The notes beneath the pieces were generated by a model. The model did no database searches, had not been told where the DNA came from, and was given only the letters and a program-made list of their open reading frames with translations. From Patescibacteria group bacterium (GTDB taxonomy: Bacteria; Patescibacteriota; Minisyncoccia; Phycocordibacterales; SIBU01), in NCBI GenBank assembly GCA_040390045.1, contig JAZJZC010000002.1:37113-101112 (forward strand): a stretch of 64,000 nt of DNA, given 5' to 3'. Below, one piece after another: positions 500-61,927 of this stretch (position 1 is the stretch's first letter; the number at the start of each line of letters is the position of its first letter). The translations under genes and the position numbers were made by a program.

Positions 500-520
500 A
501 AAATAGACAATAGAAATAAA

Positions 521-557
521 CTGAAAGCCCGGCGCACGAAGCGCGCCGGGCTTTCAG
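521..557 (+). terminator. rho-independent terminator hairpin after fusA
   Basis: Perfect GC-rich inverted repeat ctgaaagcccggcgc..gcgccgggctttcag followed by a T-run. Confidence 0.7.
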
Positions 558-615
558 TTTATCCACTTTCGTGGTACTATGTGAGCTCTATCGCTTACCA
601 ATAATTTTTTCAATT

Positions 616-3249
616 ATGAAGAAGCTATTACTCACCCTTTCTCTCGTCGTCTCTTTAGCCTTCGCCTCAGTGGCTTTTGCCGAAACTTCAACTTCAGTTG
701 CGGCCAATCTTCAAGCGCAAATTAACACCATCCTGGCTCAAATTCAAAAACTTCAGCTCCAGCTCAATGCTCAAGCAGGAGTTTCAACTACTGTTCTTCC
801 GGTTGTTCCAACAACCTCAACTTCCGCTTCTGACGGATTTTGTTTTGCTTTTGTAAATAACTTAAGAATTGGAGATCAAAATCCCGATGTCACAAATCTC
901 TACCGTGCGCTCATCGCTGAAGGACTTTTTGACAAAGACGAAGCCTTTCAAGACGGCCGACAGGTTCTGTATTTCAGTGAACGATTAGCTTCCGCTGTTT
1001 CTGAATTTCAAGAAAAATATGCTTCTGAAGTTCTCGCTCCCGCTGGCCTAAAGCGCGGCACAGGCTACGTGGGTCCTTCGACGAGAGCGAAACTCAATGC
1101 TCTGTATCCATGTTCAAAAACTATTCCACCTGTAGAATGTCCGCTCGTCTACGGCTCTGACGGAGTAGTTCGTCACGAGTGTTCAACGAATTCTCAGTCT
1201 CCCGTCATCAATGGTGTCAGTGGCCCTCAGTCACTAACAGTAAATCAGCAAGGTACGTGGACTGTAAAAGCTTCCGATCCAAGTGGAGGAGCTCTTTCGT
1301 ACTCAGTTATTTGGGGGGACAGTACATCTGTGCCTATGGCAACAGGTGAGAATGGTTTTCCTTCGGCGAGTACATTTACGCAGACTGCAACATTTACTCA
1401 CACCTATACACAAGCAGGAAGCTTTTATCCGCAGTTCTTTGTAAGAAATAATGTTGGAACACAGGGTACGGGCTTGAGTGTGAATGTGGTTGGTGTCAAA
1501 ACCGCTTCTTCTATTACCGTTTCGCGTCCAAATGGCGGAGAAGCATGGACCAAAGGAACAACCCAAACAATCAGTTGGAACGACACTTCAAATAATCTTC
1601 CAGCTGGATGTAATCAAAACGGTCTTTACTGTATGCCTCCTGTTCCGAGATCCTATGATATAAAACTTATCCCATACTGTATTGGAACTTGTACGGCTAT
1701 ACCACACGCTCCTTATACAATTGCAAGTAATGTTTACTCAAATAGCTATTATTGGAATGTTGGGAGTATTACCTATGCGTATGCAACGCAACCAAATCCT
1801 ACTACTATTGTTCCTGACGGCGCGTACACTATTCAAGTTTGCCAAACGGGCATCTCAGTTTGTGATTCAAGTGATTCGTATTTCAAAATTATTTCTGGTG
1901 TCGCACAGCCTTCTATCACTGTTCTTAGTCCAAATGGGGGAGAGACATTTACGCAAGGAAGTCTGTTGACTGGTTCGTTTACAACATCAAATATAGCTTA
2001 CGGTACATTTTGTGAGGCAGCCATTGTTGGTAGGAAGTCAGATGGTAGCCCCGTTGATGCTACTATCGCAACTTTGAGCATGTCAGCTACAGATAAACAG
2101 GTTTATTCTGGAACAATTCCAGCTAACCTTGTGCCCCCAGGAAGTTACAGAATTAGAGTTGATTGTGGTGGTGGAGTTTTGATTGCCCAAGATCAAAGCG
2201 ACAATTCTTTTACAATAACTACACCCACTAATTCTACAACTCCTACAGCCTACCTTTCTGCTTCGAGCGGGAATAAAACAGTTTCTTCATCAGGTTCTAA
2301 CAGTACAACGGGAGTTCTGACCGTAAATGTTGGTGATGTTGTTTCATATACATGGAATACAAACGGTACTTCTGCCACATCAGGCTACACAGTTTCAGGC
2401 GGGGCTGATCCTTGTGGTTGGTATCCAGTTAGCTCTGGGCCAAATTATCCTTGGGTTGCTCACGACACAAATGGTTCTTATTCAATGCCAAATGCTATTC
2501 AAAGTTGCCAAGCCGGACATACCTACTACATCACTTACAAAGGCACCAACAGCGCTGGATCAAATTCCGCGACGGTTGCGGTGGTGGTTAATCCAGTAGT
2601 TTCATCACAACCTACTATTACTGTAACCAGCCCAAACGGTGGAGAGACATTGACGATGGGTAAAACCTATACCGCTTCTTGGACTTCATCAGGAGTTTCA
2701 AGTGTCATGGTTGATTTAGTACGACCCGGATACGAATGCCATCTCACTAATGGGGACGTGTCTAATACTGGAAGTCTAAATTTTTCATTGACGAGCTGTG
2801 TCAACGGTCTAGCAATATCTCCAGCCACTGATTATAAGATCGTGGTGATGTATCGAAGTAATGCAGCGATTGTCACTAAGGATGAGAGTAATTCATATTT
2901 TACTATCATGACAACTTCCACCCTTAACAATCAGTCGCCGATTATCGATAGCATAACGGGCCCAACAGCGGTTGGAGTTAACCAGGCCGGTACGTGGAAT
3001 GTGAAAGCTACTGATCCAGAAAGCGGCAATCATGTTGTTTTTGGAGTAAATTGGGGAGACGGTAGCATTTCAGCTAATACATTTTTTTCTTCAACTGATC
3101 CCAAATACGCCCTTGCTACTTTGAGTCATACCTACACTCAAGCCGGAGCATACACTATTACCTTTAGTGTTGATGATGGCGACGGAGGAATTACGACACA
3201 GCAAAGAACGCTCAACGCGTGGGTAGTCGGGACGTTCACAGTCAATTAA
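616..3249 (+). CDS. large secreted cell-surface protein with a PG-binding-like domain, two PKD-like domains and repeated PNGGE-W (Kre9/KNH-like) modules
   Basis: Signal peptide MKKLLLTLSLVVSLAFASVAFA. PG_binding_1-like segment (GDQNPDVTNLYRALIAEG...VGPSTRAKLNALY). WGDS/WGDG..HTYTQAG PKD motifs near aa 230 and aa 830. Four or more repeats of SPNGGE(T/A)(F/W/L)T.G. Start chosen at the ATG at 616 inside the ORF 571-3249. Confidence 0.7.
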   Translation: MKKLLLTLSLVVSLAFASVAFAETSTSVAANLQAQINTILAQIQKLQLQLNAQAGVSTTVLPVVPTTSTSASDGFCFAFVNNLRIGDQNPDVTNLYRALIAEGLFDKDEAFQDGRQVLYFSERLASAVSEFQEKYASEVLAPAGLKRGTGYVGPSTRAKLNALYPCSKTIPPVECPLVYGSDGVVRHECSTNSQSPVINGVSGPQSLTVNQQGTWTVKASDPSGGALSYSVIWGDSTSVPMATGENGFPSASTFTQTATFTHTYTQAGSFYPQFFVRNNVGTQGTGLSVNVVGVKTASSITVSRPNGGEAWTKGTTQTISWNDTSNNLPAGCNQNGLYCMPPVPRSYDIKLIPYCIGTCTAIPHAPYTIASNVYSNSYYWNVGSITYAYATQPNPTTIVPDGAYTIQVCQTGISVCDSSDSYFKIISGVAQPSITVLSPNGGETFTQGSLLTGSFTTSNIAYGTFCEAAIVGRKSDGSPVDATIATLSMSATDKQVYSGTIPANLVPPGSYRIRVDCGGGVLIAQDQSDNSFTITTPTNSTTPTAYLSASSGNKTVSSSGSNSTTGVLTVNVGDVVSYTWNTNGTSATSGYTVSGGADPCGWYPVSSGPNYPWVAHDTNGSYSMPNAIQSCQAGHTYYITYKGTNSAGSNSATVAVVVNPVVSSQPTITVTSPNGGETLTMGKTYTASWTSSGVSSVMVDLVRPGYECHLTNGDVSNTGSLNFSLTSCVNGLAISPATDYKIVVMYRSNAAIVTKDESNSYFTIMTTSTLNNQSPIIDSITGPTAVGVNQAGTWNVKATDPESGNHVVFGVNWGDGSISANTFFSSTDPKYALATLSHTYTQAGAYTITFSVDDGDGGITTQQRTLNAWVVGTFTVN

Positions 3250-3270
3250 TTTTATCAAAGTGTTTCCTGA

Positions 3271-3306
3271 AAACTCCCCGTCGGCCGCGGCCGACGGGGA
3301 GTTTTC
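3271..3306 (+). terminator. terminator hairpin after the surface-protein gene
   Basis: aaactccccgtcggccgcggccgacggggagtttt inverted repeat. Confidence 0.7.
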
Positions 3307-3428
3307 TTAAAGCTAACAGCCATCAGCTCTAAGCTGTCAGCTTCTCTAGCTTTGCGTTTGCGTTTTTTTTCTCTTATGCTAGTATATGAATCTCGCGTCA
3401 CGCGCTTCTTTTCAGAACTTGCGATTTT

Positions 3429-3520
3429 GGCGAACTTCTTTGTTGCTTCGCTCGTTTGCTCCCGCAATGTATATGAATACATTTTGGTCGCAAGCCGAGC
3501 TCGCGCTTCGAATTTCATCC
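3429..3520 (-). repeat. copy A of a ~90-nt conserved element (inverted relative to copies B and C), 123 nt upstream of tuf
   Basis: Reverse complement aligns with 29978-30070 and 44209-44290: ggatg.a.ttcga.gcgc...aaaatgtattcatatacattgc.ggagcaaa.cg.gaagcaac.a.gaag. Contains the palindrome atgtat-tcat-atacat. Confidence 0.6.
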
Positions 3521-3642
3521 AAACTCACAATTTCTGACGAGCGATTACCATTATTATAATTTATTAGTTTAATTTTATTGATAGTTATTTAAATTAAGCA
3601 AACTTCTCGTGCGCTTACTTTAGATAAGTATCACACACACAT

Positions 3643-4833
3643 ATGGCAGAATTTAATCGAAGCAAGCCGCACGTAAACGTTGGTACTATTGGCCACGTTG
3701 ACCACGGCAAGACCACTTTGACAGCCGCGATTTTGAACTCCCTTCATCTCGCCGGAAACATCGTCAAGTTGAAAAAAGTTGACGAAATTGACTCAGCTCC
3801 TGAAGAAAAGGCTCGCGGAATTACTATTGCCCTTTCTCACAACGAATACGAGACAGCAAATAGACACTACGCGCACATCGACGCTCCAGGTCACGCTGAC
3901 TACATCAAGAACATGATCACCGGTGCCGCTCAAATGGACGGTGCTATTCTCGTGGTTGCTGCAACTGATGGAGTTATGCCTCAGACTCGCGAACACGTGT
4001 TGCTCGCAAAGCAAGTCGGAGTGCCAAAAATTATCATTTTCCTCAATAAGGTAGACATGGTAGAAGACAAGGATCTTGTTGATTTGGTTGAAGAAGAAGT
4101 TCGAGAACTTTTGACCAAGCAAGGTTTTGATGGAAAAGGAGCTCCTGTTATTCGCGGATCAGCCTTGAAGGCTCTTGAGGCCACTGATGTTAACAACGAA
4201 TGGGTCAAGAAAATTCTTGAATTGACCGCAGCTCTTGATACCTACATTCCAGTTCCAGTTCGCGATACCGACAAGCCATTCCTTATGCCAATCGAAGACA
4301 TTTTCTCAATCGAAGGCCGAGGAACTGTAGTTACCGGAAGAATCGAACGAGGAATTATCAAAGTCGGTGAAGAAGTTGAAATTGTTGGTATCAAACCAAC
4401 AGCTAAGACGACTGTTACCGGTATTGAAATGTTCAACAAATCTCTCTCAGAAGGTATGGCCGGAGATAACGCCGGAATTCTTCTTCGAGGAACCAAGAAA
4501 GAAGATGTGCACCGAGGGCAGGTTTTGGCCAAGTCTGGTTCAGTAACCCCTCACACCGATTTCGAAGCTGAAATTTACGTTTTGAAGAAAGAAGAAGGTG
4601 GACGACACACACCATTTTTCTCTGGATACAAGCCACAATTTTACATTCGAACTACTGACGTTACTGGAGATGTGACTCTTCCTGATAAAGTAGAAATGGT
4701 TATGCCAGGAGATACCATTACCTTCAAAGTTAAATTGGTAGCCCCAGTTGCCCTAGAAGAGAAGACACGTTTTGCCATCCGAGAAGGAGGTAAGACTGTC
4801 GGAGCCGGAGTGGTCACGAAGATTGTCGCGTAA
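3643..4833 (+). CDS. tuf: elongation factor Tu
   Basis: [26 protein letters not shown] motifs. 396 aa. Confidence 0.97.
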
Positions 4834-4908
4834 AAGAGAAGGGTATAGGGTTGAGGGTCTAGACCGAATTCGGAAAACTAAACCCTAAAACCTAAACCCT
4901 AAAACCTA
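4834..4908 (+). repeat. intergenic hairpin element with agggtatagggttgaggg / aaaccctaaaacctaaaccct arms and a conserved aattcggaaaact loop
   Basis: Near-identical elements recur at 8588-8660 and 11664-11740. The arms are imperfectly complementary (CCCTAAA-like repeats). Confidence 0.6.
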
Positions 4909-4913
4909 TTCAA

Positions 4914-8189: not shown

Positions 8190-8588
8190 ATGGCCACCCT
8201 TAATTCAAAAAAGAATATCGTCACTGCAAAGCCTAAAGCTGCTAAAAAATCGGTTGCCAAAACTTCAACAAAAAGTTTGGCCGTGGTTTCTGCTGCGCCT
8301 ACGATGATCTCAACGGGCGTGATTGTGAAGCCTCGAGTTACCGAGAAGGCTAGTCAACTTTCTGGAAACGGCGATCGAATGGTTTACGTTTTTGAAGTAA
8401 CTGCTTCAGCTAACAAGCAAAATATTAAAGCGGCAATTCAGGCATTGTACAAAGTAGTTCCAGAAAAAGTGGCTGTTCTCCGAGTTCCTTCCAAAAAATC
8501 TTTTGTACGAGGAAGAGTTTCGAAAGGTAAGACGGGCCGCAAAGCCTATGTCTATTTGAAAAAAGGCGAAAAGATCGAAATTATATAA
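8190..8588 (+). CDS. rplW: 50S ribosomal protein L23 with an N-terminal extension
   Basis: MVYVFEVTASANKQNIKAAIQALYKVVPEKVAVLRV. Confidence 0.85.
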   Translation: MATLNSKKNIVTAKPKAAKKSVAKTSTKSLAVVSAAPTMISTGVIVKPRVTEKASQLSGNGDRMVYVFEVTASANKQNIKAAIQALYKVVPEKVAVLRVPSKKSFVRGRVSKGKTGRKAYVYLKKGEKIEII

Positions 8589-8660
8589 GAAGGGTATAGG
8601 GGTAAGGGTTTAGTCTAAATTCGGAAAACTAAAACCTAAACCCTCCACCCTAAACCCTAG
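8588..8660 (+). repeat. second copy of the CCCTAAA-arm hairpin element
   Basis: aagaagggtataggggtaagggt...aaattcggaaaact...aaaacctaaaccctccaccctaaaccct. Confidence 0.6.
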
Positions 8661-8665
8661 ATTTT

Positions 8666-9520
8666 ATGAAATCATACAAACCCACATCAAAATCCCGCCG
8701 TCACATGACAACCATTTCGTATGGTGACATTTTGACTACCTCAGAACCAAGGAAGGCTTTGACCTCAGGTTTCAAGCGACATGTTGGACGAAATAATCGC
8801 GGACGTTTGACTACTCGACACAAAGGAGGTGGCCACAAACGATTGTACCGAGAAATTGATTTTATTTTTGATAAAAAAGAAATTCCAGCAGTTGTTGAAA
8901 CTGTTGAATATGATCCAAACCGCACGGGCTTCATTAGTCTCGTTTGTTACAAAGATGGTGAACGCCGATACGTGTTACTTCCAAAATCTGTAAAAGTTGG
9001 CGACACCTTTCTCGTTTCAGAGAACGCACCGCTTAAACCTGGTAATCGATTGCCTTTGAAGAAAATTCCCGTTGGTACTTTTGTCTACAACCTAGAGCTT
9101 AAGCCAGCTGGTGGAGCTAAGGTTGGCCGTTCTGCAGGAAATTACGCCGAGGTAATTGCACAAGATGCGGGTTACACTCACATCAAAATGCCTTCAACCG
9201 AAGTTCGAAAAATTGTTGAAACCGCTTGGGCTTCTGTTGGTGAAGTTTCAAATGATGAAAACCGCTTGGTAAATATTGGCAAGGCAGGACGTTCACGATG
9301 GCTCGGCATTCGACCAACCGTTCGAGGTTCAGCTCAAAACCCAGTTGACCACCCATACGGAGGAGGTGAAGGTAGACAGGGCCGAGGATTGCGATTTGCG
9401 AAGACTCGTTGGGGTAAGCACGTCGGCAAGGGTCAGAAATCACGAACTCCAAAGAAATATTCAAACGTCTTTATTGTCTCTCGAAGAAAAGTAGGAAAAG
9501 GAAAGAAGAGTAGTTTGTAG
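8666..9520 (+). CDS. rplB: 50S ribosomal protein L2
   Basis: 284 aa. GGGHKRLYR, VRGSAQNPVDHPYGGGEG. Confidence 0.95.
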   Translation: MKSYKPTSKSRRHMTTISYGDILTTSEPRKALTSGFKRHVGRNNRGRLTTRHKGGGHKRLYREIDFIFDKKEIPAVVETVEYDPNRTGFISLVCYKDGERRYVLLPKSVKVGDTFLVSENAPLKPGNRLPLKKIPVGTFVYNLELKPAGGAKVGRSAGNYAEVIAQDAGYTHIKMPSTEVRKIVETAWASVGEVSNDENRLVNIGKAGRSRWLGIRPTVRGSAQNPVDHPYGGGEGRQGRGLRFAKTRWGKHVGKGQKSRTPKKYSNVFIVSRRKVGKGKKSSL

Positions 9521-9550
9521 AAAATAGTTGGTAGTTTTTAGAAAAGATAA

Positions 9551-9583
9551 AATCCCCCGAATCGCGAAGCGATTCGGGGGATT
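9551..9583. terminator. terminator hairpin after rplB
   Basis: aatcccccgaatcgcgaagcgattcgggggatt. Confidence 0.65.
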
Positions 9584-9591
9584 GCGTTTTG

Positions 9592-9774
9592 CTAACTGAA
9601 GGGGTGCTTTAAGTGTTCAAACACTTTATAAGTTTTCCACCACATCGGTAATTTTTGCAGTAGAAAAATGAGGCAACCCACCAATGCGATCACAGCTACT
9701 ATTGCAAAACTGTCTAAGAATTCCTCAGTACGTTTTTTCATAGAGGCATGAGCTTTATAACTACCTACAACCAT
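9592..9774 (-). CDS. small hypothetical membrane protein (antisense insert between rplB and rpsS)
   Basis: 60-aa ORF with one TM helix (AIVAVIALVGCLIFLL). Flanked by hairpins. Confidence 0.3.
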   Translation of the reverse strand: MVVGSYKAHASMKKRTEEFLDSFAIVAVIALVGCLIFLLQKLPMWWKTYKVFEHLKHPFS

Positions 9775-9856
9775 AGCACAAGCACTTCAAGATCAAAAGG
9801 ATTTGGTTTTAAGAAAAATCCCGATTCGCATACGTGTAACCGTTGGCGAATCGAGA

Positions 9857-10087
9857 TCAGGTTTTTGAAAAATATCGGCAGGCAAAAGCGATAGGGAAGA
9901 ATAAGATTACGAGGCCGAGGCCAAAAATTTCCTCAAAGGGAGTTTGGAAGAACTGAAAATAGGCTTGGCACTTCCACCGGAAAAGAAACAAGCCCGCTAG
10001 AAGACAGAAGCTTAAAAGCCCCATTCCGAGAGAAATTGTGCTCAAGCCTCGGAGGACGAAAGGTTTATTCATCGTAGAATCTTTCAC
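9857..10087 (-). CDS. small hypothetical membrane protein
   Basis: 76-aa ORF with two hydrophobic segments. Followed by the hairpin cgattcgc..gcgaatcg at 9815-9860. Confidence 0.35.
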   Translation of the reverse strand: MKDSTMNKPFVLRGLSTISLGMGLLSFCLLAGLFLFRWKCQAYFQFFQTPFEEIFGLGLVILFFPIAFACRYFSKT

Positions 10088-10211
10088 TATTCTTGACCCA
10101 CCTTAGTGTTTAGGGCCCTAAGAGTCAAGCCTCGGTTGACTTTATTGTTCCTTCTGTTAGGATAGTAGCCACGCTCTTAACGGGGCTTGTTTAATTTTAA
10201 GCCAGCATTTA

Positions 10212-10553
10212 ATGACCCGATCAGTTGCAAAAGGACCATACGTTGACCCGCGTCTTCTCAAAAAGATTGCCGGAAAAAGACCAGAACAATCTGCGCCTAT
10301 TAAAACGTGGTCACGAGACAGTCAGATCGCTCCTGAAATGGTAGGTTTTAAATTTTTAGTGCACAACGGTAAGGATCACCCAGAAGTTTTTGTAACAGAA
10401 GACATGGTAGGACATCGACTAGGTGAATTTTCATTAACTCGCAAGTTTATTAAGCACGGAGGTAAGATGCAGAAAGATATTGAAACCAAAGCCAAAGAAG
10501 GTGAGGTTGCTGCCGCTCAAGCCGCTAAAGCTGCCGTTGCTGATAAGAAATAA
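10212..10553 (+). CDS. rpsS: 30S ribosomal protein S19 with an Ala/Lys-rich C-terminal tail
   Basis: [43 protein letters not shown]. Confidence 0.9.
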
Positions 10554-11661: not shown

Positions 11662-11663
11662 TA

Positions 11664-11740
11664 AGAAGGGTATAGGGGTTAGGGTATAATCTGAAAATTT
11701 CAGAAAACTCAACCCTAAACCCTCCACCCTAAACCCTACA
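11664..11740 (+). repeat. third copy of the CCCTAAA-arm hairpin element
   Basis: gtaagaagggtataggggttagggt...aaatttcagaaaactc...aaccctaaaccctccaccctaaaccct. Confidence 0.6.
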
Positions 11741-11743
11741 TTT

Positions 11744-13050: not shown

Positions 13051-13094
13051 GAAGCTGTAAGCTGACAGCTAATAGCTTTAAGCTTTTAAATTCA

Positions 13095-13400: not shown

Positions 13401-13443
13401 GAAGCTTTAAGCTTGTAGCTTACAGCTGTAAGCTTTAAATAAA

Positions 13444-29555: not shown

Positions 29556-29589
29556 AAAAACCCTAATTCGCTCGGCGAATTAGGGTTTT
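29556..29589. terminator. terminator hairpin after ndk
   Basis: aaaaaccctaattcgctcggcgaattagggtttt. Confidence 0.65.
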
Positions 29590-29894
29590 GGCGTATAGGA
29601 CGAAAGATCGATTGGCCGCCGATCCGGAATTTTGATATACAACCTAATCCTTTCCCCAAATGTCAGTGACATCAAAGCTTCACGAAGAGGTATGCCAAAT
29701 TTTTCCCGCACATTACGCTCGTGGAAGCGAAGGAGTTCACGGTATTTGCGCTTCTGGCTAGCGCCGAGGGATTTTGGCGTCATGATTATTGTTGGTGAGC
29801 CAACGTCCTTTGCTAGCTGTTGAAGTTCTCTTTTGGCTACAATCTCGCTAAATTTCCACAGGACGGGATAACGATGGCCTTTTTTGGCAGGCAT
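29580..29894 (-). CDS. hypothetical basic protein
   Basis: 104-aa ORF. Its start lies 84 nt from copy B of the 90-nt element. Confidence 0.35.
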   Translation of the reverse strand: MPAKKGHRYPVLWKFSEIVAKRELQQLAKDVGSPTIIMTPKSLGASQKRKYRELLRFHERNVREKFGIPLREALMSLTFGERIRLYIKIPDRRPIDLSSYTPKP

Positions 29895-29977
29895 AATATT
29901 TTGGAACGTTTTCTACGTGCCACAATAACAAAGCATTTTAAAGTTGCAAGTAATTTAAGGTATAGAATTTCGCGCTC

Positions 29978-30070
29978 GGATGCAATTCGAGGCGCAAGCG
30001 ATTTTGTGATTAAGGTGTATTCATATACACCGCAGGAGCAAAATCGTGAAGCAACGACGAAGGGCGCCGA
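29978..30070 (+). repeat. copy B of the ~90-nt conserved element
   Basis: ggatgcaattcgaggcgcaagcgattttgtgattaaggtgtattcatatacaccgcaggagcaaaatcgtgaagcaacgacgaagggcgcc. Confidence 0.6.
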
Positions 30071-30373
30071 GCGTGAAGTTCTATCAAGCTTGCATTTATT
30101 TTAAGAGGAGTATAATAGAAAGTAGGGTTATTTGAGATAGTTACTCTATAACAATTTTTAAGGGAGACCTACATTGTTGCAATCAGATGAGCGCTTCTCA
30201 TTGAGACGAAAAAATTCGTAGCAACGAGAAGCGTTCTGAAGAATGCAATTGCGGTCACCCACTTAGCCTTGTGCTAGGTGACTATCTCACGATAACCCTA
30301 ATCGAAAACACCTTCCCGATGTACATCGGGAAGGTGTTTCGCTTTAGCTCGGTTCTTTTAGTATACTTCTTGC

Positions 30374-30775
30374 ATGTCATCATCCGCGTTACTTCGCCTG
30401 TCATTTTTTGTTGCGGTCATCGTGGCCGCGCTTCACACGCTCGCGGTGACTTTTTTCTTGTACTGGCACTACTGGTGGTTTGACAACATCCTTCACTTTT
30501 TAGGGGGATTGTGTTTGGGATTCGCCTCTCTCGGGATTTTTTTCTTGTATCGCAAAAGCCGCGTTTCTCCAAAGCCCAACACTGTCCTCCTCGTTGCTCT
30601 TATTAGCGTGCTCATTGTTGGCGGGGTGTGGGAAATTTTTGAATATTGTAATGGCTTCACAGATAACTCGATTGGCAGTTATCCGCTCGATGTTGTTAAA
30701 GATCTCACGTTTGGTGTTATTGGCAGTTATGTTGCATATCGATATTCGTTAAAAAGTCCGGATCATAAATTATAA
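30374..30775 (+). CDS. small integral membrane protein, possibly VanZ-like
   Basis: 4 TM helices. WWFDNILHFLGGLCLG resembles the VanZ D(K)xxHF motif. Confidence 0.45.
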   Translation: MSSSALLRLSFFVAVIVAALHTLAVTFFLYWHYWWFDNILHFLGGLCLGFASLGIFFLYRKSRVSPKPNTVLLVALISVLIVGGVWEIFEYCNGFTDNSIGSYPLDVVKDLTFGVIGSYVAYRYSLKSPDHKL

Positions 30776-37338: not shown

Positions 37339-38835
37339 ATGGACAATCATTATTTTCACACCGAACTTGTTAAAGTCGGGAAGTGGCCACTTCTGCCGCT
37401 TGATTGTGATACTTGGTTTTCCCAAGAAGTCTCGGACAATTTCAAAAAAATTTTTGGAATACCAAAAGGTTTTTTGTGGATTAATACACTTGAAGATGGT
37501 TATTTGCATGACTATGTACCGCTCTCCTATTTCAGATTGCTGTATTCAACAATTGACGCAATCAAAAAGAAAAATTACAAAGGTCTCGAAAAAAAGATTC
37601 GCGTAGTTTATGGTTTAAAAAAGATGGCAAAGAAAAGTTTGCCAAAAGTTAACCCAAGAAATCTTTCAGAAATTTCGAACGAAGGTCTTATTAAGGCATA
37701 TACAAAGAACCGTTCAATTGTTCATGAGCTAACAGTATTCGACCAGTTTGGTTTTCTCGGAGAGGAATATTGGACGCCACACATGGAAAGTATTCTAATC
37801 AAAAAGCTCGGTCTTGCGAAAGATTCTGTTGAATACCATCGAGTTATTTTTGCTTTGACCAAGCCCGAAGAAATTTCCACAACACTTGAAGAGAAACGAG
37901 CAGTTTTAGGTGAGGCTTTGAAAATTAAGAAGGGCAAAACTTCTGTTGAGAGTGCATCAGAAAAATTATCACAAAATTTTGGTTGGATGCCGGTTTTTAC
38001 GTTTGGAACTGCTTGGGATTCAGCATGGTATAAAAAGGAACTTACTGACGTTTTGAAAAAGGAACAGGATGTTCTGGAGCAAGAATTTGCCGAACTTAAA
38101 AATTATTCAAAATCACGAAATGCCGAGATTAAAAAAATCGTAAAACAGTACAATCTTTCAAAAGAAGATCTTCAGGTCTTTGTTGATTTTGGTTTAGCGC
38201 TCGATGGCAGAAATGAAGCTGAATACATCGTTAGTTTGGCTGGGTTTTATTTGATGCCTGTCTACACTGAGATAGGGGGGCGACTACAAATTCCAGTTAA
38301 TGATTTAAGAAAATTTTACGAGACCGACGTGGTCAATTGTCTTTTAGGAAAGGCTGTGCCTGTGGAAGTTCTTGTTTCGAAAGGAAATATTGTGGCAGTT
38401 GGCACTGATGAAAGTGTTGAACGCCGTATCAATTTTTCTCCCGCTGAGGCACGGGCTCTTTTCGAGCACATGGAAAAAAATGCCAAGAACGCCCAAGGTA
38501 ACAATGAATTTAAAGGTGTCTGCGCTAGCACAGGAACTGCGGTTGGTATCGCGCGCATCGTTCATTCTCCGAGTGAAAACAACAAAGTACAAGAAGGTGA
38601 CATTTTAATTACGCATGCCACGACTGTTGACTATCTTCCCGCCATGAAAAAAGCAGCCGCGATTGTTACCGAAGTTGGGGGATTAACCTGTCACGCCGCT
38701 GTAGTCTCACGTGAATTTAAAATTCCGTGCGTCGTCGCGCTTAAAAATGCTACGACCAATTTTAAGGATGGAGATATGATTGAGGTACTGGCCGATCGTG
38801 GTATGGTTACGGTCGTTAAAAGAGCAAATATATAG
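37339..38835 (+). CDS. protein with a C-terminal PEP-utilizing enzyme mobile (phosphohistidine swivel) domain, paralog 1
   Basis: C-terminus GVCASTGTAVGIARIVHSP...GDILITHATTVDYLPAMKKAAAIVTEVGGLTCHAAVVSREFKIPCVV matches the PEP-utilizers swivel domain with the catalytic His in TCHAA. Start at the ATG at 37339 within ORF 37171-38835. Confidence 0.7.
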   Translation: MDNHYFHTELVKVGKWPLLPLDCDTWFSQEVSDNFKKIFGIPKGFLWINTLEDGYLHDYVPLSYFRLLYSTIDAIKKKNYKGLEKKIRVVYGLKKMAKKSLPKVNPRNLSEISNEGLIKAYTKNRSIVHELTVFDQFGFLGEEYWTPHMESILIKKLGLAKDSVEYHRVIFALTKPEEISTTLEEKRAVLGEALKIKKGKTSVESASEKLSQNFGWMPVFTFGTAWDSAWYKKELTDVLKKEQDVLEQEFAELKNYSKSRNAEIKKIVKQYNLSKEDLQVFVDFGLALDGRNEAEYIVSLAGFYLMPVYTEIGGRLQIPVNDLRKFYETDVVNCLLGKAVPVEVLVSKGNIVAVGTDESVERRINFSPAEARALFEHMEKNAKNAQGNNEFKGVCASTGTAVGIARIVHSPSENNKVQEGDILITHATTVDYLPAMKKAAAIVTEVGGLTCHAAVVSREFKIPCVVALKNATTNFKDGDMIEVLADRGMVTVVKRANI

Positions 38836-38857
38836 TTATGTTAAGTTTAGTATTACT

Positions 38858-38995
38858 GTGGAACTAGGTCCTGAGATCAGCAGATCGAAGGGCAAGATCG
38901 TGGTATGGTTAGGGTAGTTGAAAAAGCAAAAAGATAGTATTTAAAATCTTTAGTGTAAATATGGAACTATGTCCTGAGACCACCAGGTCGAAGGG
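38858..38995 (+). repeat. two tandem copies of a 40-nt repeat (tggaactaggtcctgagaccagcaggtcgaagggcaag) that can encode MELGPETSRSKGK...
   Basis: Copies at 38858 and 38952. Copy 1 also duplicates the 3' end of the upstream gene. A third copy is at 41432. Confidence 0.45.
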
Positions 38996-39836: not shown

Positions 39837-41402
39837 ATGAATCCTACTATTTTAGAAAAAATAAAAAGTTTGCATTGGATAAATGCTTGGGCGGGGAACT
39901 GGCCCCATCTGGATACGTTAGTTTTGCGCGGGGAAGCTTACGAAAAAGAGGCTGTAAAAATTTGCGGTCTATCATTACGACTTATTGAAATAATTTTGAC
40001 ACAAGATGGTATTGTCACTTTCTACCGAGCGGCTGAATGCTACGAGGCTATCGATAAAGATCTTCTAAAAAAATTCGAGGACGACCCTGGTTTTATAAAA
40101 AATTCCGCTACAGGATATAGCAAGCGCGTAGCCAGTGATGTCCGCGAACTTCAGAAAATTAAAAAAATAAAAAATCTTGCCAAACTTTCAAATTCGGAAT
40201 TGGCGGAATTGTTTGAAAAAGCCCGCAGACATTTCGAATACAATGGCATGATCGATATTTATGACTGGTATGTTGAAAAATTGTTTACGCCGGTTCTTGA
40301 AAAGATTTTGACAGAACGTCTGACAAAAATGGGGAAGGGTAATCTTGTTTCAGAATATATTTCAACCTTGGTTATTCCACATAAAATATCGGTGATTTTT
40401 AAAGAACGACAGCAATTGTTTGCGATTATAAAATATATTCGGGTGCACGAACCTTTACTGGCTTTAATAAAATCTGGCGCTGCATATACGGAAGCTTTGG
40501 GTGCAGACACTCAGTTTGCCAAGTTGTTTAAAGCCTATTTCCGAAAGTATCAATGGATGCCAGTTCTCGTGAACAATCCACCGCATACACTCGAAACAGT
40601 CTTTAAAGAAATTACTGATTTTGTAATACCTGACGCACCACTTGAAATAAAAACCAAAAGACTTGGCGATAATCATGATGAGGTGGCAATTGAAAAGTCT
40701 CACGGGTATTTGAAGGAACTCAGACTTTCTCGCCGCGAGAAGTTGCTTGTCCTAGGGTTACGAGCTATGGCTTTTCTTCGGACCGAGGATTACTGGGTGA
40801 TGAGCAAGTCTTCGTTTTTGGTTATGCCGCTTTATACTGAAGTTGCGAAAAGGCTAGGACTGACATATTCCGAACTCAAGCAATTTTTCCCAAAAGAAAT
40901 TTCAAAACAACTACGCGAGGGTACAAAAATTTCTGCCGATGAAGTACAGAGCCGTTTTAAGTTGAGTGCGTACGTAACTCTTGAAAATGACGAGCAGTTT
41001 TTTACCGGTTCGAATGCTGGTTTAATCAAGGCTGTTGTGGATGAACAGTTAAAAACTAAAAAGCATTCAAGTCAGACTAGCTGGAAGGGCGTTGTGGGAA
41101 ATGGTGGAAGCGTGCGAGGTCTTGTGCGAGTGGCGCTTGATCCAAAAGAGGCGTCGCTTATAAAAGATGGTGAGATTTTGGTGGTTACTGCCACGAGTGC
41201 TGGCTTCGTGCCGTTTCTGAGAAAAGCCGGAGGCATTATTTCTGAGTTTGGTGGACTAACGTCGCACCAAGTCATTGTTGCGCGAGAGTTTGGAGTTCCT
41301 TGTTTGGTTGGAGTTAAGGAAATTACAAAGTATCTTTCGACAGGAGATCGGGTAGAAATAGATGCCGAACGCGGTGAGGTTACTTTAGTAAAAAAAATCT
41401 AA
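39837..41402 (+). CDS. protein with a C-terminal PEP-utilizing enzyme mobile domain, paralog 2
   Basis: C-terminus GVVGNGGSVRGLVRV...GEILVVTATSAGFVPFLRKAGGIISEFGGLTSHQVIVAREFGVPCLV. The N-terminal ~400 aa are of unknown function. Confidence 0.7.
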   Translation: MNPTILEKIKSLHWINAWAGNWPHLDTLVLRGEAYEKEAVKICGLSLRLIEIILTQDGIVTFYRAAECYEAIDKDLLKKFEDDPGFIKNSATGYSKRVASDVRELQKIKKIKNLAKLSNSELAELFEKARRHFEYNGMIDIYDWYVEKLFTPVLEKILTERLTKMGKGNLVSEYISTLVIPHKISVIFKERQQLFAIIKYIRVHEPLLALIKSGAAYTEALGADTQFAKLFKAYFRKYQWMPVLVNNPPHTLETVFKEITDFVIPDAPLEIKTKRLGDNHDEVAIEKSHGYLKELRLSRREKLLVLGLRAMAFLRTEDYWVMSKSSFLVMPLYTEVAKRLGLTYSELKQFFPKEISKQLREGTKISADEVQSRFKLSAYVTLENDEQFFTGSNAGLIKAVVDEQLKTKKHSSQTSWKGVVGNGGSVRGLVRVALDPKEASLIKDGEILVVTATSAGFVPFLRKAGGIISEFGGLTSHQVIVAREFGVPCLVGVKEITKYLSTGDRVEIDAERGEVTLVKKI

Positions 41403-41431
41403 CCTACAATGTTTAAAATTTTAGTATCAAT

Positions 41432-41475
41432 ATGGAACTAGGTCCTGAGACCAGCAGGTCGAAGGGTAGAGAGAG
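41432..41475 (+). repeat. third copy of the MELGPETSRSKG-encoding repeat
   Basis: atggaactaggtcctgagaccagcaggtcgaagggtagagag. The ORF 41432-41707 runs through the terminator and is doubtful as annotated. Confidence 0.45.
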
Positions 41476-43616: not shown

Positions 43617-44178
43617 GGTGTATTGGTTCTAAAAGTTTTTTCAATTCGACCTTCGCTCGTTTGATCCGGATGCCGACCGTGCCCGCGGGAACTTGCAAGA
43701 TGTCGGCGATTTCTTTATAAGGCATTTCTTCTAAATAATAGAGTATCAGAATTTCGCGATATTTTGGAGAAAGTTGGTTGAGTCCGCGGTCTATCATTGT
43801 TCGCATCTCTTTTTGTTCACGTTCATCTCCCGCGGGGTCGTCGTAGGCGGTGTGAGAAACGAGAATATCAAAATCAAACAAGGTGAGCGGGTTGAGAGAA
43901 TTTTTCTTCAGAGCATTTACGAAACAATTGTGAGCGATTCGATAAATCCACGAAGAAAATTTTTGCGACGGGTTGAAACTTTTAATATTTTGGTACACCT
44001 TAATAAAAACATCTTGCACGATGTCTTCGACGTCTTCAGTCCGTGCCAGAAATTTATTGCCGTATCGCAAAAGTTTTGGTTCAAAGCGCTCGACGAGTAC
44101 GCCAAAAATTTCCTTGTCGCCGGCTTTGACAAGTAGGGCTATTTCTTCGTCTGTGTGTAGGTTTTCGCTCATCTTCAA
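43606..44178 (-). CDS. ECF-type RNA polymerase sigma factor
   Basis: Region 2 (VQDVFIKVYQNIKSF..., WIYRIAHN) and region 4 (MPYKEIADILQVPAGTVGIRIKRAKVELKKL). Confidence 0.85.
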   Translation of the reverse strand: MKMSENLHTDEEIALLVKAGDKEIFGVLVERFEPKLLRYGNKFLARTEDVEDIVQDVFIKVYQNIKSFNPSQKFSSWIYRIAHNCFVNALKKNSLNPLTLFDFDILVSHTAYDDPAGDEREQKEMRTMIDRGLNQLSPKYREILILYYLEEMPYKEIADILQVPAGTVGIRIKRAKVELKKLLEPIHHEQ

Positions 44179-44208
44179 TATTTGGAACCTTCGGAATCGG
44201 ATGCAGCT

Positions 44209-44290
44209 CGAGGCGCGAACGATTTTGCGACTAAAATGTATTCATATACATTGCAGGAGGAAAATCGTGAAGTAACGACGAGGGGCGGCG
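44209..44290 (+). repeat. copy C of the ~90-nt conserved element, 31 nt upstream of the ECF sigma factor start
   Basis: ggatgcagctcgaggcgcgaacgattttgcgactaaaatgtattcatatacattgcaggaggaaaatcgtgaagtaacgacgaggggcggcg. Confidence 0.6.
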
Positions 44291-44393
44291 ATTATGAAGA
44301 TTCCATTAATAGTACACTTTTGGGGGAAGGTTTGCTCTCACTGCAACAAACCCCCTGAGGAGGGGGTTTGTTGCCATAGTTAGTTTAATTGAA

Positions 44394-46975: not shown

Positions 46976-47377
46976 TGGTGGAGATGGGGAGAATTGAACT
47001 CCCGTGCACATGATTGCTCTTTTTGGATCTACATTGTTTAGTCAATTTTTATCCTTGCGGATTTTAAACTCTGAAATTTTAAAATTAACAAAATGTTTCA
47101 GTGTCGATTCTCTTTGGTTAAAGCGTGTTACGAGAAGGGAACACACTCGATTCCGAGGTATGAACGCTTATGTGTGCCTATCGGACGTTGGCACAATAAT
47201 CGTCGCTTAGGCTAATGCGTAAGCGAAAGCAAAGTCTCTACCCGCAAAATACGGAGAAAGTTGTTTTGCTTTTGAAAGTAAGTTTTTTGCACTTAACTTT
47301 TCCAGCAGTTTAAGGAATTACTGGAGTTCCACAATGCGCATAAAGATGCTGGTCACATGTCTAGGCCGGTCATCCCC
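46976..47377 (-). ncRNA. ssrA: tmRNA (ssrA)
   Basis: Minus strand begins GGGGAUG and ends GGGAGUUCAAUUCUCCC-CAUCUCC-ACCA: T-arm plus acceptor with the G3:U70 pair and encoded CCA. Candidate tag frame ...GRDFAFAYALA-stop. Lies 46 nt downstream of smpB on the same strand. Confidence 0.8.
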
Positions 47378-54740: not shown

Positions 54741-54788
54741 CTCACATACACTGATTGTACACGGCCGTGTACAATCAGTGTATGTGAG
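54741..54788. repeat. 48-nt perfect palindrome with a GGCC centre
   Basis: ctcacatacactgattgtacac-ggcc-gtgtacaatcagtgtatgtgag. Confidence 0.6.
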
Positions 54789-55926: not shown

Positions 55927-56048
55927 AATTTAAATAGTATGACTGGTTAATACTTTGATTATACCAGAACTTTTTCTATTAGAAAAAGTCAAAACGTTGT
56001 GGTAATCTGAAGCTTCAAGCTGTAAGCTAGTAGCTGATAGCTTTTCAC

Positions 56049-61799: not shown

Positions 61800-61886
61800 G
61801 GAGAGATGGATGAGTGGTTTAAATCAACGGTTTACTAAACCGTCGACCTTTAATTAGGTCCGCGAGTTCGAATCTCGCTCTCTCCG
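61800..61886 (+). tRNA. tRNA-Ser-like (long variable arm) with an unusual ACU anticodon
   Basis: Acceptor ggagaga/tctctcc, anticodon arm acggt-ttactaa-accgt, variable arm gacc-tttaatta-ggtc, T arm gcgag-ttcgaat-ctcgc, discriminator G. Confidence 0.65.
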
Positions 61887-61927
61887 CATTTGAAAATCCG
61901 CCCTTTTGGGGCGTGATTTTCTTATGC

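Follow-up and report, generated by a model that had tools for sequence, protein, structure and literature searches.

A probable ERIC/RPE/MITE-like family of dispersed imperfect palindromes in Paceibacteria

The stretch of DNA analyzed here (the window, 64,000 nucleotides from a Patescibacteria group bacterium) carries a tuf gene whose product, EF-Tu, corresponds to NCBI entry MES2087749.1 and has its nearest named relatives in Parcubacteria and Candidatus Taylorbacteria. Ahead of tuf, and at two other places, lie three related hairpin-forming sequences. Copy A, a 124-nt imperfect palindrome at 3414 to 3537 on the plus strand, sits in the predicted leader of tuf, whose ATG (3643) follows 106 nt later. 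Copy B, a 127-nt unit at 29961 to 30087 on the minus strand, occupies a divergent intergenic region between ORF 29580-29894 (minus strand) and ORF 30374-30775 (plus strand). Copy C, of 129 nt, is found at 44181 to 44309 on the minus strand, with a terminator-like hairpin (44351-44365) on one side and, on the other, the start of an ECF sigma factor gene (TTG at 44178, ATG at 44172) whose product has the sigma-70 r2 and r4 domains. A profile of the three copies used with nhmmer returned exactly three matches in the window, with E values of 2e-40 for B, 3e-38 for C, and 9e-34 for A. The best non-copy match to the same profile had an E value of 0.06, and a fourth copy is absent.

The original prediction had described three copies of a conserved element of ~90 nt at these places, lying 123 nt upstream of tuf, 84 nt upstream of ORF 29580-29894, and 31 nt upstream of the ECF sigma factor gene. 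The positions and distances were as claimed and the conserved stretch is real, but the true repeat unit is larger, an imperfect hairpin of 124 to 129 nt in the window. Read on the strand of the downstream gene, A, B, and C have a mean column identity of 76% in a three-way alignment, in agreement with the roughly 75% first estimated. Pairwise, they are only 75 to 82% identical, which makes them old copies rather than evident products of recent movement. Each window copy was compared with 200 shuffles of its sequence, none of which folds as well. The resulting fold z-scores range from -4.5 to -6.8 on the strand directed toward the gene (the gene-ward strand) and from -6.0 to -10.3 on the opposite strand. 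For copy A, the values are -37.9 kcal/mol (z = -4.5) on the plus strand and -46 kcal/mol (z = -6.1) on the minus strand; for copy B, z is -6.8 on the minus and -10.3 on the plus strand; and for copy C, it is -5.7 and -6.0 on the two strands.

To briefly describe the structure, the unit forms a single long irregular helix. Its apical stem-loop in copy A (3467 to 3482, plus strand), ATGTAT-ATGA-ATACAT, is the 6-4-6 palindrome that was originally called invariant, with equivalents at 30030-30015 in B (GTGTAT..ATACAC) and 44251-44236 in C. Invariance holds within the window, but relatives differ in both stem and loop, with variants that include ATGTAT-TCCGA-ATACAT, ATGTAT-TCTGA-ATACAT, and, in loci L108 and L110, CTGTAG-N7-CTACAG. 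The apical loop can be 4, 5, or 7 nt long, and a change of half-site (ATGTAT, GTGTAT, or CTGTAG) is matched in its partner. A stem that covaries around a loop of variable length is what a folded single strand tolerates, and a dimer operator of fixed spacing is thereby excluded. The compensatory middle stem proposed from the window copies is also real, reading CGATTTTG/CAAAATCG in B and C and GCTCG..TTTGC/GCAAG.CGAGC in A.

The suggestion that the element is held together by pairing was borne out by covariation in an alignment of 13 copies. Standard pairing is present in 93.4% of cells, and 25 of 41 pairs have changed on both sides. None of 500 shuffles matches any of five pairing measures, and when partner columns are slid out of register, 31 to 47% are paired. 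The outer stem, ~17 bp, evolves fastest; in helix 1, 18 of 23 pairs show changes on both sides and 92% of cells are paired. Conservation is lowest in the outer 15 bp of the unit, where a loose end consensus, TAGRAC...GTYCTA, remains. It is highest around the internal loops (GGCGCATTTCTTCGTTGC and GCGCCTCGAACTGCATCC) and in the apical region, CTCCCGCAATGTAT..ATACATTTTGG. Overall, neutral decay would have left pairing much poorer than it is. Selection acts on the fold, or else complementarity has been restored at the DNA level, since template switching during replication can repair the complementarity of a quasipalindrome without selection. Which strand would be the functional RNA? As RNA, the opposite strand is 5 to 22 kcal/mol more stable in all 13 copies compared. 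Two G-U pairs on the gene-ward strand, however, are invariant in all 13 aligned copies and become A-C mismatches on the opposite strand. These signals point to different strands, if either is a functional RNA.

Conservation of this kind could also come from protein coding. The original prediction had argued otherwise on the grounds that the ORFs overlapping the copies are in different frames. Copies B and C do in fact share open frames, but the conclusion stands for another reason, namely, that there is no three-base periodicity on either strand. Substitutions between B and C fall 15/13/9 over the three phases (P = 0.47), and all pairs together give 22.6/28.1/24.0 per column. Stop codons are scarce in the units, with a mean of 2.5 of the six frames open compared with 0.8 in shuffles and 5 of 6 open in L008; as the copies share ancestry, this amounts to about one observation. 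The ORFs of 82 to 126 amino acids that run through several units (window 3255-3518, minus strand; 29820-30104 and 43973-44275, both plus strand; L010 3159-3407; L008 3229-3609) are a side effect of this shortage. For gene callers, the units are thus a source of spurious ORFs of 60 to 130 amino acids, and misannotation as hypothetical proteins is likely. A protein search with five open frames joined, aimed at in-frame insertions elsewhere, returned nothing. Consensus scans for promoters and terminators found no site in A or B, and near C only the terminator-like hairpin upstream of it. Two candidate identities were also dismissed. An ECF-type promoter (GGAAC..CGTC in the 5' arm) was rejected on reading because its spacer of 18 to 23 nt is too long, and an integron attC site was rejected by eye for want of arrays and of an R'/R'' box consensus.

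How far does the family extend? A core pattern, GCRRTGTATATGAATACAYYTT, was searched against 185,579 species genomes and against metagenome contigs. Among the species genomes there was one true relative, in a Candidatus Lloydbacteria MAG (L001), and metagenome contigs contributed eight true matches (L004, L005/L007, L008, L009/L011, L010, and L012). A covariance model built from nine copies (CM R1) then added copies whose cores are altered, in L010, L012, L108, and L110. Its scores were 133.6 (A), 122.7 (B), and 121.2 bits (C) for the window copies and 78 bits, across the full length, for the Lloydbacteria copy. In ~1 Mb searched, the model found 14 full-length copies at 78 to 146 bits and nothing else. 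Counted from CM R1 and the metagenome loci, which are fragments only, the family comprises 14 copies at 13 sites, the window copies included. Its units are 124 to 136 nt long, and its hosts are a patchy set of small groundwater Paceibacteria (Patescibacteria/CPR).

Several other matches proved to be chance. L002 (Eubacteriales), L003 (an hsdM-like coding sequence, GDVYEY), and L006 share just the 22-nt core and score 13 to 19 bits, and a 21.7-bit match at window 511-567 is a GC-rich terminator-like hairpin after fusA. Viral contigs had no exact match to the core pattern. Their 86 matches to a 14-base flank motif are attributable to chance, with nothing found by CM R1 in the 80 fetched loci searched. 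A search of Rfam 15 gave nothing at the gathering threshold and, up to E = 10, only chance matches of 10 to 15 bits, so that the element corresponds to no curated RNA family. Within the family, the copies at L010 3225-3356 and L012 4576-4708 have in common a distinct 3' middle arm, TAGGAAGCTCGGCTC, joined to 5' arms of two subtypes, one L008-like and one A-like. Such mixed arms suggest that recombination or conversion may have taken place between copies.

The genes beside the copies have little in common. In the window, they are tuf (A), ORF 29580-29894, also called ORF104 (B), and the ECF sigma factor gene (C). Elsewhere, they are dnaN and the yidC|jag spacer in L012, the rpsO|NYN spacer in L008, scpA in L005, rpmA in L009, clpP|rny and rny|hup in L010 (both in opposite orientation), and rplC in L108 and L110 (also in opposite orientation). 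All three window copies have the same orientation relative to the gene, as originally claimed, but across related contigs this is true of only 10 of the 13 sites. The three opposed sites are the two in L010 and the one at rplC, and the 10:3 split has a two-sided binomial P value of ~0.09. Nor do copies always lie upstream of genes, as one is inside an ORF (described below). The distance from unit to start codon varies from ~3 to ~105 nt, and many copies are found in operon spacers or 3 to 25 nt from a start.

The tuf site allows filled and empty versions of one locus to be compared. Among relatives with EF-Tu proteins 92 to 96% identical to that of the window (L014-L020 and L107-L111), no locus has the element upstream of tuf. 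In ~155 kb of tuf loci from eight sets of these relatives (all but L108 and L110), there is no copy anywhere. The orthologous site is empty in L014, L015, and L108, with both flanks of copy A aligning. In an alignment of window 3370-3660, the left flank, TGCTAGTAT...GCGCGTTCTTTT, is common to the window, L014, and L108 until the base preceding copy A, and the right flank restarts at ATTATT...ATTTATTARTTTAAT. Between the flanks, the relatives hold just 30 to 38 unrelated bases. The motif TGCTAGTAT itself (3377 to 3385, plus strand) resembles an extended -10 element; it lies upstream of copy A, outside the repeat, and is conserved in relatives that are free of the repeat. In L014, a TTGACA precedes TAGTAT by 16 nt, and on this basis TGCTAGTAT is a putative extended -10 that would place copy A ~22 nt into the tuf leader, although the consensus scan reported no site. 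The converse case is rplC. The copy upstream of it is orthologous in L108 and L110, with conserved flanks, and the window is without it. Several stem positions differ between the L108 and L110 copies, which by eye stay largely paired, the differences looking mostly compensatory.

The surroundings of copy A are variable in other respects. In the normally tight str operon, the slot between fusA and tuf holds a large variable protein gene (window 571-3249, L014 7227-9767, L108 4902-9242, L110 269-2716, and L111 6086-9805) that differs in each genome. It encodes 815 to 1,446 amino acids where large and ~260 in L018/L019. Most versions have PKD, TIG, dockerin, or PG_binding_1 domains, and none is on record for L111. 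The slot has the look of a hot spot. Likewise, the S10 operon is interrupted at its L2-S19 junction, in the window by ~690 nt (9520-10212) without an ORF of at least 80 amino acids, in L018 (15862-19026) and L020 by an N6/N4 DNA methyltransferase gene and several unknown genes, and in L019 (15369-17049) and L109 by a PaaX-like gene.

The window also holds repeats of other kinds. A second, unrelated hairpin family of ~80 nt, GGGTATAGGGTTGAGGGTCTAG ... CTAAACCCTAAAACCTAAACCC, occurs at 4835-4913, 8586-8664, and 11662-11743, all on the plus strand, with fold z-scores of -3.2 to -4.1 on both strands. Its three copies occupy spacers of the S10 ribosomal-protein operon, one of which is tuf|S10. Short hairpins of the AAGCTGTAAGCTGACAGCTAATAGCTT type are found at 3302-3343, 13052-13079, 13402-13440, and 56005-56044; one of them is just upstream of copy A, after the PKD-domain gene. 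A 75-nt direct repeat has three copies ending in GGAACTAGGTCCTGAGACCAGCAGGTCGAAGGG (38818-38892, 38921-38995, and 41392-41466) and directly follows each of two paralogous genes with a PEP-utilizing mobile domain. At 54741-54788 there is a perfect 48-bp palindrome made of two 24-nt arms without a spacer, CTCACATACACTGATTGTACACGG/CCGTGTACAATCAGTGTATGTGAG. Among stable RNAs, ARAGORN reports a tRNA-Ser with the unusual anticodon ACT at 61800-61887, and there is a tmRNA with a long, 27-residue tag, AKNLLSKAKQLSPYFAGRDFAFAYALA, at 46976-47377.

The copy in L004 is the one that lies inside a gene. Its unit falls within the ORF of a 409-residue GT4 glycosyltransferase, in frame and without a stop codon, and accounts for an insert of 43 residues (EYDLRS...DCVGPT) between the conserved motifs NGIDxxFM and FILSVGKDMGRDY. 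The insert is missing from all eight of the closest homologues aligned (62 to 70% identical), and all 62 homologues found are shorter, with 260 to 378 amino acids. The hairpin predicted at the insert is 128 nt long, outer stem included, and 43 codons make 129 nt; the whole hairpin is therefore the inserted unit. This bears on the idea that only the conserved core moves and lands in local hairpins that already exist. That idea was rejected because the outer stems share a loose consensus and because the L004 insert is the whole hairpin. It also fails at the empty tuf sites of L014 and L108, where the hairpins are not significant (z = -0.8 and -1.1).

To which of the known repeat systems, then, is the family closest? 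The origin and mobility of ERIC/IRU elements are unclear. Correia elements have well-conserved terminal inverted repeats and TA duplications, and in the RAYT-mobilized REP/REPIN elements, which are intergenic hairpins, compensatory changes maintain the pairing. ERICs are scattered between genes in numbers that vary widely, and now and then a copy lies within a gene (PMC10969869). The present family resembles ERIC/IRU in being an imperfect palindrome of ~125 bp with a conserved center, placed in transcribed intergenic regions in either orientation, and in its lineage-variable copy number and occasional intragenic case (PMC10969869). It is unlike them in that sequence and host (enterobacteria in their case) are unrelated. 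Transcription of the present units is judged from their position within operons and leaders. RPEs are ~150 bp, carry an open reading frame, and are frequently fused in frame to metabolic genes; RPE-1 to RPE-10 are palindromes of ~100 to 150 bp, spread over a small genome, that occupy intergenic sites and, in frame and without a stop codon, sites within conserved genes, to whose products they contribute a peptide segment (PMC10969869). The 43-residue insert of L004 and the shortage of stop codons are the points of likeness. RPE hosts are Rickettsiales rather than Patescibacteria, however, and the present family, likened to RPEs by description only, is an analogue and not a member. RPEs are also reported mostly as in-frame fusions, whereas 1 of 13 sites is intragenic here.

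Correia/NEMIS elements of Neisseria, the classical bacterial MITE, are similar in being short hairpin repeats in leaders and operon spacers, and transcripts containing Correia elements are cut by RNase III (PMC10969869), an effect of the type proposed below for the present units. In the present family, by contrast, variation is greatest at the termini, and a TA duplication is indistinguishable from the end of the stem: the TA..TA that borders 7 of 13 copies forms the final two pairs of the stem as well. No consistent direct repeat accompanies the copies, and the empty site of L004 is known at the protein level only. The MITE-like alternative mentioned in the original prediction fits much better than a regulator, even though target site duplications are not demonstrable. 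The unit is short (124 to 136 nt) and non-coding and occurs at 13 non-orthologous sites; a copy occupies the tuf site in the window alone and the rplC site in L108 and L110 alone. Against a simple selfish MITE, conservation is lowest at the termini, the opposite of what is seen in terminal repeats bound by a transposase; no partner transposase or parent insertion sequence was noticed in an unsystematic look through the fetched DNA. REP units are 20 to 40 nt long, and a REPIN is a doublet whose ends are conserved and whose loop varies, whereas here the center is conserved and the ends vary. Structured leaders such as riboswitches and ribosomal-protein leaders also have folds supported by covariation, and copy A does lie in a predicted tuf leader. 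Unlike them, the family has no positional conservation at orthologous genes and no Rfam match, and it occurs in both orientations and once within an ORF.

Taken together, the copies probably belong to a dispersed, non-coding family of imperfect palindromes in Paceibacteria that is ERIC/RPE/MITE-like in character and is not a co-regulator of tuf and the sigma factor. The whole hairpin is a unit that is present or absent at each site, and copies occur at non-orthologous sites beside unrelated genes, in either orientation, with one in frame inside a gene. This combination, along with patchiness among close relatives, points to a dispersed repeat rather than a regulon element. The original prediction had proposed a shared cis-regulatory unit through which tuf and the ECF sigma factor gene would be co-regulated, whether as an operator with a promoter or as a motif in the 5' UTR. 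That proposal is unsupported: the element is upstream of tuf in none of the relatives examined, although both flanks can be aligned, and the neighbors are many, unrelated, and in both orientations. The repeat does not bind tuf, ORF 29580-29894, and the ECF sigma factor gene into one regulon. Stated as a duplex-DNA operator for a dimeric regulator plus a promoter, co-regulation of these three genes is very improbable. It would explain the perfect 6-4-6 palindrome in all three window copies, each upstream of a gene. It does not explain why half-site sequence and spacing vary in relatives (loops of 4, 5, and 7 nt; CTGTAG/CTACAG) with pairing retained, and it leaves ~110 further conserved paired bases superfluous. 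Copies inside an ORF and between operon genes are at odds with it, as are relatives that have no element at the tuf promoter despite a conserved -10 region. No sigma-70-type site was detected, and the GGAAC/CGTC-like ECF motif is too widely spaced. Hardly any weight can be given to the view that the units are small protein-coding sequences or remnants of them. Most copies have between two and five of their six frames open, on both strands (..NVYEYILVA.. and ..KMYSYTLREQ.., for example), and the core GATGTATATGAATAC also occurs by chance in the hsdM-like coding sequence of L003. But indels shift the frame between copies, frame use differs from copy to copy, periodicity is lacking (B versus C), and the joined five-frame search found no protein.

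Two further explanations take the hairpin to be a functional RNA. That it represents a family of stand-alone small RNA genes, transcribed from the strand opposite to the gene-ward one, is unlikely. The greater stability of that strand in 13 of 13 copies is as expected, but flanks differ between copies and no promoter-like or terminator-like site is present at the units. The best internal match, TTGCGA-16-TACATT, agrees at just 8 of 12 positions and is lost in the L108 variant. Some copies fill an entire operon spacer or lie within an ORF, and the two invariant G-U pairs would be A-C mismatches in such an RNA. A more serious possibility, though one we would still bet against, is a domesticated cis-acting RNA module, in which the hairpin is kept for control of mRNA processing, stability, or translation, with host function first and mobility second. 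Examples would be an intercistronic cleavage site for a double-strand-specific RNase or a protective 5' stem, and this explanation overlaps the best one. It accounts well for the very strong covariation, the fast-evolving outer stem included, for the two G-U pairs that are invariant on the gene-ward strand in 13 of 13 copies, and for the 10:3 orientation. The many copies in operon spacers or 3 to 25 nt from a start codon also suit it, as does retention of the orthologous rplC copy in L108 and L110. Correia and ERIC repeats have been reported to be cut by RNase III or to expose RNase E sites (PMC10969869). Yet position is not conserved at orthologous genes, and relatives manage without the element at tuf. 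The distance to the start codon ranges from ~3 to ~105 nt, three sites are opposite in orientation, and one copy is translated inside an enzyme. The better-folding strand is, in all 13 copies, the opposite of that of most host genes, and template switching can restore complementarity without selection. The repeat family that we favor has difficulties of its own. Strong covariation and the rplC copy retained in two genomes argue that the fold is maintained, against a purely selfish, decaying repeat, and the orientation leans 10:3 toward the neighboring gene.

How might such a repeat spread and act? If the copies arose by insertion, they may have been placed by an enzyme acting in trans or by recombination. 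Because the termini are the least conserved part, the insertion mechanism probably recognizes the conserved core or the fold. The repeat would have no promoter of its own and, judging from its position in operons and leaders, would be transcribed passively with its neighbors. Once in a transcript, a long RNA hairpin may alter the processing, stability, or translation initiation of its own mRNA; a double-strand-specific RNase, for instance, could act on it. There is precedent in the effect of ERIC insertions on mRNA decay via RNase E (PMC10969869).

The most immediate consequence is that a tempting but wrong inference is removed, that of a shared regulator of translation capacity (tuf) and an ECF sigma factor. 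The family is apparently the first ERIC/RPE-type palindromic repeat family documented in Patescibacteria, as we found in the literature no report of such repeats, or of an RPE-like in-frame insertion, in CPR bacteria. The unusually clean covariation also makes it a good case for separating selection on RNA from palindrome correction at the DNA level. Patescibacteria genomes are ~1 Mb and are usually described as streamlined. Those with the repeat nonetheless keep long hairpins in core-gene leaders and spacers and, once, inside an enzyme. One interesting speculation, which we hold only loosely, is that this is a structure-defined CPR element, recognized via its internal loops and apical stem, moved or copied by an enzyme yet to be linked to it, and selected as a modular RNA hairpin in leaders and spacers. 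If so, proteins could also gain new surface loops from it, and the process, RPE-like but set in a lineage that is streamlined and either free-living or episymbiotic, might involve a new mechanism of mobilization.
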